This document shows, piece after piece, positions 11,307 to 12,864 of a stretch of DNA of 64,000 nucleotides. Both the position numbers and the translations under genes were made by a program. The notes beneath the pieces are model-generated. The model worked only from the letters and a program-made list of their open reading frames with translations, searched no databases and was not told the DNA's origin. The stretch lies in assembly GCA_963931545.1 (NCBI GenBank), contig OZ007025.1, positions 137,145 through 201,144 on the forward strand. The letters run 5' to 3'. Positions within the stretch are counted from its first letter, which is position 1, and each line of letters begins with the position of its first letter. This DNA comes from an uncultured Bacilli bacterium. Its GTDB lineage: Bacteria; Bacillota_I; Bacilli_A; RF39; UBA660.

Positions 11307-11342
11307 TTTGCTTTAAAGTTAAAAATATGATATTATGTATAT

Positions 11343-11453
11343 AGATGAGAGTTTTCTCATATAATAAAAAGGAATATTCAATTCGCGATGTTGAATGTAC
11401 CAATTATTTGTGTACACCTAAATCAAGCGTTTGCTTAAGTTAGGTGCTTTTTT
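11343..11453 (+). ncRNA. Putative small RNA (candidate type I antitoxin) ending at an intrinsic terminator
   Basis: A promoter-like TTGCTT (11308-11313), 17-nt spacer and TATTAT (11331-11336) sits right after the mnmE stop. A transcript from it would run about 110 nt to the hairpin and T-run at 11415-11453. It would overlap the 3' end of the convergent small ORF on the opposite strand. Confidence 0.3.
11415..11453. terminator. Rho-independent terminator shared by convergent transcripts
   Basis: CACCTAA...TTAGGTG forms a stem extendable to about 12 of 14 bp, followed by CTTTTTTC. Confidence 0.6.
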
Positions 11454-11531
11454 CTATTTAAATAATATTATGAATATTAAGATAAATAGAAGGGATATTA
11501 TGGCATAGAGAGCTTTTTCTCTTTGAGTCAT
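11454..11531 (-). CDS. 25-aa hydrophobic peptide (candidate type I toxin)
   Basis: The minus-strand ORF encodes MTQREKALYAIISLLFILIFIILFK. It has a GGAGGTGA ribosome-binding site 6 nt upstream that is partly sequestered in the hairpin CCAATTC-TTTTGTGA-GAATTGG. The ORF ends directly at the terminator. Confidence 0.4.
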   Translation of the reverse strand: MTQREKALYAIISLLFILIFIILFK

Positions 11532-11596
11532 AAACATCACCTCCAATTCTTTTGTGAGAATTGGCACACCCAACTTACTGAATATTCCTTAATATG

Positions 11597-11625
11597 ATTA
11601 TAACAAATGGTTATATATTAATCAA
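11597..11625 (-). promoter_or_regulatory. Consensus promoter driving the small hydrophobic peptide ORF
   Basis: The minus strand reads TTGATT (11625-11620), a 17-nt spacer and TATAAT (11602-11597), about 55 nt upstream of the peptide ATG. Confidence 0.45.
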
Positions 11626-11697
11626 TATAAAAATATTTAGTTTAAATATAAAAATGTTATATTCATGTTTTTAAAGTATGTATTTAGGAGGTTTATT

Positions 11698-11928
11698 ATG
11701 TGGAGTCCAGTTATTGAAGTTTGGGGTAAAAAGGATGTTGATTCATCAGTAAAAGAAACAGATTCTATTGATAATGAGTTTGCTTATTTGGATGCTATTA
11801 TACAAAAAATAGATATAGAAATAAATAATTTACAAGAATTAAAAGATTATCTTATTCATATAAAAGGTTGTTTTAGTAAATCTCAAGAATTAGGAAAAAA
11901 GGTAAAACAACTTAATTTAAGAAAATGA
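11698..11928 (+). CDS. Hypothetical small protein (76 aa)
   Basis: The ORF has a strong AGGAGG ribosome-binding site before ATG 11698 (MWSPVIEVWGKK...). It is predicted coiled-coil with no recognisable family. Confidence 0.45.
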   Translation: MWSPVIEVWGKKDVDSSVKETDSIDNEFAYLDAIIQKIDIEINNLQELKDYLIHIKGCFSKSQELGKKVKQLNLRK

Positions 11929-11964
11929 TTTTAGAAAAATAATAAAATATTAAAGGAGTAATTT

Positions 11965-12795
11965 ATGAATAAAGAAAAATATATATTAACTTTAAAAGAT
12001 AAAATAACTGATGAAAATACTAGAAATATAATTATTAATCAAATAGAAAATTATTATGAGGCTATTAAAAATTTTAAACCTGTTTATTGTGATTATAAAA
12101 TAGGCGATAAAGTTTATTTAACTAAAGGAACTTTATTACATGGTACATATAAAAATATTGATGGTTTAAAGCAAATTATTAAAGAAGGTCTTATCTCTAA
12201 TCTTACTACTATAGGAAGAAATTCTAAATATAATTATACTGTTGGTGTTTGGAAGTTAAAAAAAGATTATTATTTAAGTGATTATATTAATTTTTATAGT
12301 GGTGCGACTATTATGTATTGTTCTTTTAATGATAAAAATATTACGGAAGTCATACCTTATAATAAAATGAATAATTTGTTATCTTTTGTTTCTAATTTTA
12401 ATGGCCATGTGTGGGTTATGGAACAAACCAAAGAAGCTAGGTTTTTGCCTAGTTTAGTTCAAGATAGAGTGCAAATTGGAATAATTTTTAATGGAAATAA
12501 TAAATATATTAAAAAAATGCTTAATTATGATATTTTGTCATTAGATTTTGATGAAAATGATGTTAAAAATTTTATTTCACCTAGTTATTATGATAGATTT
12601 ATAAAAGAAAGAAAAAATAAAAACGATTTTTTTACGGATAGGGAAAGCGCTATTATTTTTGGTATACCTAGTATTTTTATAGAAGGAATACTTGTTGGTA
12701 GAAAATATGAAAATAATGAGATTATTTTAAATGAAATTAAAAGTCTTTTACCAAATGCATATATTTGTAATTTAGATGGTGTTATTATTAAATAA
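11965..12795 (+). CDS. Hypothetical protein (276 aa), weakly ADP-ribosyltransferase (H-Y-E)-like
   Basis: The ORF has an AAGGAG ribosome-binding site. The motif TLLHGTYKNIDGLKQIIKEGLIS resembles the H-G-S...G-I-L..G-L strand-helix of PARP/DarT-type ADP-ribosyltransferases. No other family signal was seen. Confidence 0.4.
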   Translation: MNKEKYILTLKDKITDENTRNIIINQIENYYEAIKNFKPVYCDYKIGDKVYLTKGTLLHGTYKNIDGLKQIIKEGLISNLTTIGRNSKYNYTVGVWKLKKDYYLSDYINFYSGATIMYCSFNDKNITEVIPYNKMNNLLSFVSNFNGHVWVMEQTKEARFLPSLVQDRVQIGIIFNGNNKYIKKMLNYDILSLDFDENDVKNFISPSYYDRFIKERKNKNDFFTDRESAIIFGIPSIFIEGILVGRKYENNEIILNEIKSLLPNAYICNLDGVIIK

Positions 12796-12864
12796 TTATG
12801 TTAGTTTAATTGACTAACTTTTTTTCTTGTTGTAGAATTATCTTTAGTATTTGGTGGTGATTTA

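Follow-up and report, generated by a model that had tools for sequence, protein, structure and literature searches.

The described systems that come closest to the locus analyzed here are bsrG/SR4, a type I toxin-antitoxin (TA) locus of Bacillus, and DarT (DarT1/DarT2; PF14487), an ADP-ribosyltransferase (ART). In bsrG/SR4, a small hydrophobic peptide, which in BsrG is 38 amino acids (aa) long, is encoded by a highly structured toxin mRNA of about 250 nt, and a convergent small RNA (sRNA) overlaps the 3′ part of the message. DarT toxins are accompanied by a dedicated antitoxin, the DarG macrodomain or NADAR, and the residues described for DarT2 are H13, T15, N19, R51, Y71, and E160 (PMC9967889; PMC11543638). 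Here, we analyzed the interval between mnmE and mnmG in a stretch of 64,000 nucleotides from an uncultured Bacilli bacterium (contig OZ007025.1; hereafter the window), in which an earlier reading of the letters, the original prediction, had seen an accessory insertion carrying a putative type I TA pair and two further genes, of 76 and 276 aa. We found that the insertion is made of three cassettes, which we call A (a type I TA-like locus), B (the 76-aa gene), and C (the 276-aa gene). The family to which the 276-aa protein belongs is best described, from its predicted structure, as an unannotated variant of the ART superfamily, nearest to DarT in fold, which stands alone and is sometimes fused to an HD or HIT domain.

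The gap between mnmE (tRNA modification GTPase; 9957-11306, plus strand) and mnmG (gidA; 12865-14715, plus strand), which is directly followed by rsmG (14717-15415, plus strand), spans positions 11307-12864, that is, 1558 bp, and holds three open reading frames (ORFs): those of 76 and 276 aa on the plus strand and a hydrophobic one of 25 codons on the minus strand. For comparison, we used a genome scan with MnmE that gave 80 loci, mostly from gut metagenome-assembled genomes (MAGs) labelled 'uncultured Bacilli' and one labelled 'Candidatus Coprosoma sp.'; the mnmE products of the relatives match TrmE_N, MnmE_helical, and MMR_HSR1, and those of mnmG and rsmG the Pfam families GIDA and GidB. The two genes stand in tandem in 71 of the 80 loci, and in 49 of these 71 the gap measures 8-134 bp, which bears out the view that the pair is normally contiguous. 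Short gaps are also found in the nearest out-groups, L015 (81% mnmE identity, gap 87) and L017 (73%, gap 12), and therefore the gap of the window is lineage-specific, not general. No recombinase ORF was found in 11307-12864, nor a direct repeat around the whole insert, the sole direct repeat flanking cassette A alone. SGI1-like integrative islands prefer the 3′ end of mnmE (trmE) as their site. We considered such an island and rejected it, as the gap has no recombinase ORF and no att-type repeats bound the whole insert.

The closest relatives (87-95% MnmE identity), together with metagenomic strains whose flanks are 99-100% identical, carry differing subsets of the cassettes. All three are present in the window, L170, and L168; A and B, with C reduced to its last 20 nt, in L008 and L172-174; B and this 20-nt remainder of C, without A, in L176-179; B with a 90-nt remnant of C in L014; A alone in L009, L010, L012, and L018; and B alone in L013. 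Where the flanks are 99-100% identical (L008, L168-L179), both cassette A and cassette C vary in presence from strain to strain. Since remnants of both 20 nt and 90 nt occur, the 276-aa gene has been deleted at least twice independently. The interval is thus a real accessory insertion, present or absent among strains, of which we are practically certain, and it is a mosaic of three independent cassettes, not one module.

Several details of these alleles deserve mention. The commonest deletion of cassette C joins the start-codon region of the 276-aa gene to an ATG 17 nt before its stop (GATGGTG) and leaves ATGGTGTTATTATTAAATAA, a near-exact excision of the ORF (window 11929-11967 vs L008:4420-4464), and its junction occurs both with and without cassette A. 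In two metagenome scaffolds, runs of N lie exactly at the position of cassette C (L168:4653-4753 and L169:3743-3842), and in L168, where the run follows cassette C, flanking sequence is duplicated around it. We rejected the extra sequence of L168 and L169 as an artefact, likely from the assembly of mixed strains that differ in cassette C, and left L169 out of the presence/absence calls for this cassette. The homologue of cassette B in L013 (3612-3960) is only 54% identical and is broken by a stop codon, with the remainder in another frame, and is either a pseudogene or an assembly error.

Cassette C consists of the 276-aa ORF at 11965-12795 on the plus strand, preceded by AAGGAG. The protein had no match at E <= 1 in Pfam, NCBIfam, or PADLOC. 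The AlphaFold2 model of the window protein, built on a 35-sequence alignment, reached a mean predicted local distance difference test score (pLDDT) of 93.9 and a predicted template modelling score (pTM) of 0.91. A second model, with a pLDDT of 89.6, was made of P0268, a minimal member that lacks an insertion of about 35 residues. When the window protein was compared with the PDB using Foldseek, the top match was the Thermus DarT with NAD+ (7omw), and the first 45 matches included the yeast Tpt1 7yw4 (probability 0.75, TMt 0.62), two DarTG entries, and CteC. For P0268, all of the top 15 matches among 350,542 chains were ARTs, from several clades: the best was DarTG of M. tuberculosis (7yk3; E 5e-3, probability 0.92), then the Thermus DarT (probability 0.8), and the others included DarTG of T. 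africanus, DarT1 of E. coli C7, CteC, Tpt1, cholera toxin A1, and pertussis toxin S1. DarT is therefore the best structural match of both modelled members. A search of the BFVD viral fold library gave uncharacterised proteins only, none of them at E <= 1e-3.

The original prediction had picked out the motif TLLHGTYKNIDGLKQIIKEGLIS, residues 56-78 of the 276-aa protein, as ART-like. When we ran hhalign against a four-sequence alignment of Tpt1, LLHGT..I.K.GLIS of the family was laid on LYHGT..I.KQGLIA of KptA, which is exactly that motif. The columns conserved in at least 90% of 42 diverse members include H59, G60, G75, E157, P162, G233, P235, and G241, of which H59 and E157 are the most conserved polar residues. 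For a possible H-Y-E triad, the candidates are H59, the aromatics W96, Y107, and Y111, and the glutamates E157 and E240. H59-G-T61 and N64 may parallel H13-I-T15 and N19 of DarT2. The family and DarT would have in common a beta1 H-x-T near the N-terminus, after which a helix closes with G-L-x-S, and a catalytic region of similar size. They differ in that the 276-aa family has no similarity to DarT at the level of hidden Markov models, equivalents of Arg51 and Glu160 were not identified, the window protein has an extra N-terminal helical hairpin (residues 3-36), the main clade of the family has the insertion of about 35 residues, with three strands, and some members carry HD or HIT fusions. Tpt1/KptA (PTS_2-RNA) is likened to the family by its NAD+ lobe, through the Foldseek match and the HGT element, and may be comparable as a stand-alone, non-toxic type of ART gene. 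The 276-aa protein differs from it in lacking the N-terminal RNA-binding lobe and, outside the HGT element, in matching none of the conserved columns of KptA.

A number of results weigh against this assignment. No Foldseek match of either model reached E <= 1e-3, and the TM-scores were 0.3-0.46. Neither sequences nor profiles gave a match to any ART family (Pfam on 35 diverse members, PADLOC, and NCBIfam), and a profile search of the PDB returned nothing at E <= 10. The hhalign alignment to Tpt1 covers just 27 columns, with a probability of 3%. H59 is replaced in 4 of 35 members, and E240, in IEGILVG, is present in 27 of the 35 and replaced by Ser, Thr, Asn, or Lys in the other eight. By spacing, E240 would be the equivalent of E160 of DarT, and E157 is a second candidate for the catalytic Glu. 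Of the proposed ART likeness, then, the fold-level part stood, with DarT as the top PDB match of two models, and the part that would need a significant structural score or a sequence profile did not. We regard an ART fold for the family as probable; that the 276-aa protein is an active NAD+-dependent transferase we give an even chance.

The family is large and almost uniform in length: we identified 1,596 cluster-level homologues, with 184 representatives at 50% identity, nearly all of about 275-290 aa and unnamed. One homologue, 83% identical, likewise precedes mnmG-rsmG, and those at 53-68% identity occupy unrelated genomic places, where neither mnmE/mnmG nor a relative of the 76-aa gene adjoins them in any of the 87 loci outside this one. 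Their immediate neighbours (about 80 loci) fall into 75 clusters, the largest with eight members, so there is no conserved partner. We scanned with Pfam the ten largest clusters of immediate neighbours and eight wider clusters, within three genes, and found no macrodomain or NADAR among them, a further difference from DarT; what we found were peptidase S41, His_Phos, amidase-LysM, Zn-PLC, Lactamase_B_2, AAA_33, GNAT, NUDIX, and HIT proteins. Within three genes of a homologue (82 loci), NUDIX proteins occur at 21 loci, histidine phosphatases at 11, and HIT proteins at eight; these enrichments, uncorrected for shared ancestry or synteny of the loci, should be approached cautiously. In five clusters, with 50-54% mutual identity, an HD domain is fused to the family domain in proteins of about 505 aa, one of which, annotated by NCBI as 'HD domain-containing protein', is encoded on a contig of 914 kb. 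A single HIT fusion was found, whose HIT part shares 74% identity with a HIT gene that stands alone near a homologue elsewhere. The HD and HIT fusions and the NUDIX and HIT neighbours point to nucleotide or NAD-related chemistry, and they argue against a DarTG-style toxin in need of a dedicated antitoxin. Viral contigs yielded no homologue of the 276-aa protein, so there is no obvious sign that phages carry the family. A search of PHROGs with the products of all three cassettes gave only weak matches of unknown function.

Other possible associations of the family were discarded. The HD protein of the window (9334-9948) showed no BLAST similarity to the HD domain of the fusions. The association with GNAT (a fusion in P0157 and neighbours in L004 and L181) is sporadic, being seen in only 3-5 loci. 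The second ORF of 276 aa in the window (55574-56404) is not a paralogue, since tblastn found no second copy in the window; from its translation we take it to be ribosomal protein L2. In the neighbourhoods of the homologues we also observed two proteins without a Pfam match, each at eight loci. One, of 154 aa, is encoded by the gene that immediately follows the 276-aa homologue (cluster L135_+1; L129:6928-7389 and seven other loci) and contains IYLFHGSP, an HG[ST]-type motif comparable to the one in the 276-aa family. The other, of 567 aa, is found upstream of the homologue, at a distance of two or three genes (seven loci besides L127:3650-5350), and has an N-terminal LFRGV...YFTSTS, reminiscent of the motifs of R-S-E type ARTs.

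Cassette B is the 76-aa ORF at 11698-11928 on the plus strand, with GGAGG 7 nt upstream of its ATG; an ATG further upstream, at 11665, would give 87 aa. The protein had no match in Pfam, NCBIfam, or PADLOC. Among 5.8 billion sequences it is represented by 19 clusters, all at least 75% identical, and every context that we examined was between mnmE and mnmG of this genus. On these counts, the 76-aa protein is a genus-restricted ORFan, and its gene persists where the 276-aa gene was deleted.

Cassette A is bounded by an imperfect direct repeat of 35 nt (repeat family D1, 74% identity, spacing 329), whose left copy, at 11300-11334, overlaps the mnmE stop codon and whose right copy is at 11629-11663; strains without the cassette carry a single hybrid copy. 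The toxin candidate is a minus-strand ORF of 25 aa (11454-11531, stop codon included), MTQREKALYAIISLLFILIFIILFK, with the ribosome binding site GGAGGTG. The peptide, too, matched nothing in Pfam, NCBIfam, or PADLOC. All six cassette-A sequences (the window, L008, L009, L012, L010, and L018) retain its 25 codons uninterrupted, and the substitutions are conservative, such as MTKKENSFFVIIILIFILIFLILSK in L010, whereas the flanks carry indels. Its candidate mRNA, of about 250 nt (251 nt, from 11592 to 11342, minus strand; predicted ends), folds with a minimum free energy (MFE) of -79 kcal/mol, which is z = -8.9 relative to shuffles. In this fold, a long-range 5′-3′ duplex forms (inverted repeat I2, 20 nt, 85% complementary), and a stem overlaps the Shine-Dalgarno sequence. 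Upstream, at 11597-11625 on the minus strand, is the best promoter-like site of the region (10/12 matches): TTGATT, 17 nt, and TATAAT, with TG before the -10. On the plus strand, we predicted an antitoxin sRNA of about 110 nt at 11344-11453, whose ends are likewise predictions, and which would form three hairpins, the last being a terminator (11415-11446, inverted repeat I7) followed by a run of T. Its consensus structure has 30 pairs, seven of them compensatory across five sequences, and its MFE z-score is -3.0. An extended -10 at 11328-11336 (plus strand; TGATATTAT) presumably serves as its promoter, and the pattern TGnTAnnAT is retained in 6/6 cassette-A sequences despite differing variable bases (TATTAT, TAAAAT, TACAAT).

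In a relaxed Rfam scan, BsrG (RF01412) was the best match and covered the full model (11342-11590, minus strand; 23.2 bits, E 0.0023). The shared features are the small hydrophobic peptide, the highly structured message of about 250 nt, and a putative convergent sRNA overlapping its 3′ part; the differences are the length of the peptide, 25 aa vs 38 aa for BsrG, and an Rfam score far below gathering. Two points count against a bsrG/SR4-type reading of the cassette: its 23.2 bits are far from the gathering score of 55, and the sRNA hairpins would form equally in the complementary toxin mRNA. The locus would work as follows: the minus-strand mRNA encodes a membrane peptide of 25 aa, the 5′-3′ fold-back and the stem occluding the Shine-Dalgarno sequence hold this message translationally inactive, and the convergent plus-strand sRNA is complementary to its 3′ part. 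That the window holds a type I TA pair, as first proposed, is thus backed by the conserved ORF, the mRNA fold, and the sRNA structure, and we consider cassette A a probable, computationally well supported type I TA locus of bsrG/SR4-type architecture, with expression and toxicity inferred. In L010 (4030-4050), a 16-nt deletion (alignment A3, columns 254-269) removes the GGAGG upstream of the intact 25-codon ORF, so the toxin of this strain may be inactivated.

The mnmE-mnmG junction receives other genes as well. In distant genera it holds unrelated cargo (membrane-protein pairs, transporter-like and dehydrogenase-like proteins, and a 3-kb insert), and therefore we regard the junction as a recurrent cargo slot. 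Within the genus, cassettes B and C are replaced in one MAG with an 89% identical MnmE by the gene of a 192-aa DUF2441 protein (L011:2887-3465; PF10386, E 2.7e-35), after which comes what is left of cassette A at its promoter end. DUF2441 belongs, according to Pfam, to the ADP-ribosyl clan (PMC7955679), and the slot is thus used by two different cargos related to ARTs. Apart from that position, the two have nothing detectable in common: hhalign showed no similarity between DUF2441 and the 276-aa family, and we rejected the former as a homologue. Small membrane proteins, as a rule in pairs, were observed in the gap in several genera (L020:4739-5531, L021:7424-8243, L023:7420-8185, L031:7385-7744, and L059:7392-8160). 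The first protein begins with a zinc ribbon, which a Q/P-rich linker connects to a TM2-like C-terminus, and the second is multi-pass with a CPGCG motif; L031 has the first protein only, and in L059 the first protein lacks the zinc ribbon. Further cargos, identified by reading their sequences only, are a ZIP-like transporter (L040), a GpsA-like dehydrogenase (L069), a beta-lactamase-like protein (L078), and a 626-aa protein (L019). The insert of about 3 kb, in a distant genus (L030:7357-10310), includes a 52-aa fragment resembling the N-terminus of a serine recombinase (AYGRVSSSQQNEERQ), and a short gap ORF of L061 (7326-7481) resembles, by eye, part of another gap ORF of L030; these ORFs are possible relics of a mobile element.

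Taken together, we tentatively favor, by a modest degree, the reading in which three independent cassettes occupy an insertion hotspot, A being a type I TA locus, B an ORFan, and C a stand-alone DarT-like ART. According to this proposal, the region between mnmE and mnmG would be a recurrent hotspot in a lineage of low-GC gut Bacilli, whose relatives are labelled 'uncultured Bacilli' or 'Candidatus Coprosoma', and cassette C would belong, as a gene that stands alone, to a large unannotated family with an ART fold closest to DarT. The 276-aa protein would bind NAD+ through the beta1-alpha1 element LLHGT...I..EGLIS, in which H59 would correspond to the histidine of H13-x-T15 in DarT, and would transfer ADP-ribose to a nucleic-acid, nucleotide, or small-molecule substrate; its use of NAD+, its catalytic residues, and its substrate are all inferred. 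The opposite history, in which the three genes belonged to the ancestral core genome at this site and were lost from relatives with adjacent mnmE and mnmG, is very improbable. The remnants of cassette C in L008 and L014 do show that losses happen. Nevertheless, mnmE and mnmG are contiguous in the out-groups L015 and L017 and in 47 more distant relatives, the 276-aa homologues sit elsewhere in other genera, and the 76-aa gene is absent outside the genus. A second alternative is the one that the original prediction offered: a TA or anti-phage defence module of two genes, in which the 76-aa protein would neutralise a DarT-like toxin of 276 aa. A spacer of 36 nt separates the genes, which lie on one strand, with a ribosome binding site each and no terminator between them; the fold predicted for the 276-aa protein is DarT-like; and at this locus the 76-aa gene is kept after loss of the 276-aa gene, never the reverse, as expected of an orphan antitoxin. 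Against this, the 76-aa gene is confined to one genus, and the 87 homologue loci (53-68% identity), with their 75 neighbour clusters of at most eight members, have neither a relative of it nor a shared neighbour. The scans for a macrodomain or NADAR, for PADLOC matches, and for homologues on viral contigs, all given above, were likewise empty. We therefore consider the pair unlikely, and the claim was not upheld.

The remaining alternatives concern the nature of the 276-aa protein itself. Its resemblance to ARTs could be spurious or vestigial, the protein having another alpha/beta fold or being a catalytically dead scaffold that acts by binding. We hold this to be improbable, if the most serious of the rivals: all fold matches are above E = 1e-3 with TM-scores below 0.5, no profile-level match to any ART family exists, and neither H59 nor E240 is invariant, yet two independently modelled members both rank DarT first, all 15 top matches of P0268 are ARTs, the beta1-alpha1 motif aligns with the NAD+-site motif of Tpt1, and H59 and E157 are at least 90% conserved. 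Another alternative is a specific version of the ART reading, in which the protein would confer resistance, as Arr does, by ADP-ribosylating an antibiotic or other xenobiotic. The HGT motif found in Tpt1 by hhalign is also known from Arr, the 276-aa gene stands alone without an antitoxin, and the neighbours of its homologues include GNAT acetyltransferases, AAA_33 kinase-like proteins, a metallo-beta-lactamase-fold protein, and VanY. However, there is no match to the Pfam family Arr-ms, GNAT genes adjoin the family in 3-5 loci only, and the fusions to HD and HIT nucleotide hydrolases point to nucleotide or nucleic-acid chemistry; this version, too, seems unlikely. For the stand-alone ART that we favor, the lack of a cognate antitoxin and the ties of the family to nucleotide hydrolases make it more likely that the enzyme is tolerated or self-limited, like Tpt1 or Arr, than that it is a DarT-style self-poison.

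As to the right end of the interval, a promoter scan placed the mnmG promoter at 12810-12838 on the plus strand (TTGACT, 17 nt, TAGAAT), in a segment that is retained across genus-level relatives irrespective of the cassettes they carry. A terminator-like hairpin (12800-12826, plus strand; GTTAGT-TTAATTG-ACTAAC and a run of T), which we read from the sequence after the 276-aa gene, overlaps the -35 of this promoter; its stem is too AT-rich for the terminator scanner. The base composition of the 276-aa gene deviates only mildly: its GC content is 21.3% vs a gene mean of 27.6 +/- 3.2%, about two standard deviations low, and its GC at third codon positions is 10.1% vs 15.0 +/- 3.0%, which is not decisive as a sign of foreign origin. 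Directly upstream of mnmE (7806-9948) are genes for a DUF1846 protein (511 aa) and an HD-domain protein (204 aa); the former was detected in the closer, genus-level relatives only, and homologues of the latter precede mnmE also in some distant relatives. Downstream of rsmG, a ParB/Noc-like gene (15531-17174) encodes a protein of 547 aa, unusually large for the ParB family, whose C-terminal extension is long, of low complexity, and enriched in N, Q, S, V, and P. The sole Rfam match above gathering in the window is an L31-Firmicutes ribosomal protein leader (43206-43236; 34.6 bits), and no tRNA genes were found in the 64 kb.

Finally, the insertion hotspot and the type I locus are ordinary by themselves, even if the locus offers a clean natural experiment, with near-identical strains that differ only in a type I TA cassette, an ORFan, and an ART-like gene, and the mnmE-mnmG junction is a recurrent cargo slot in this order. 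If the predicted fold holds, about 1,600 clusters from Bacilli of the human and animal gut, missing from Pfam, NCBIfam, and PADLOC, would join the ART superfamily beside DarT. Their genomic logic would differ from that of DarT, as they have no antitoxin and are recurrently fused to an HD or HIT hydrolase. It is a possibility, which we put forward only speculatively, that they constitute a previously unrecognised and widespread DarT-like clade of nucleic-acid or nucleotide modifiers in gut Bacilli that do without a separate antitoxin, with HD or HIT as an eraser or product-processing domain in some members and NUDIX or HIT proteins acting in trans elsewhere. In that case, the 276-aa protein would be a tractable candidate enzyme, and the known range of base and nucleotide ADP-ribosylation would widen.

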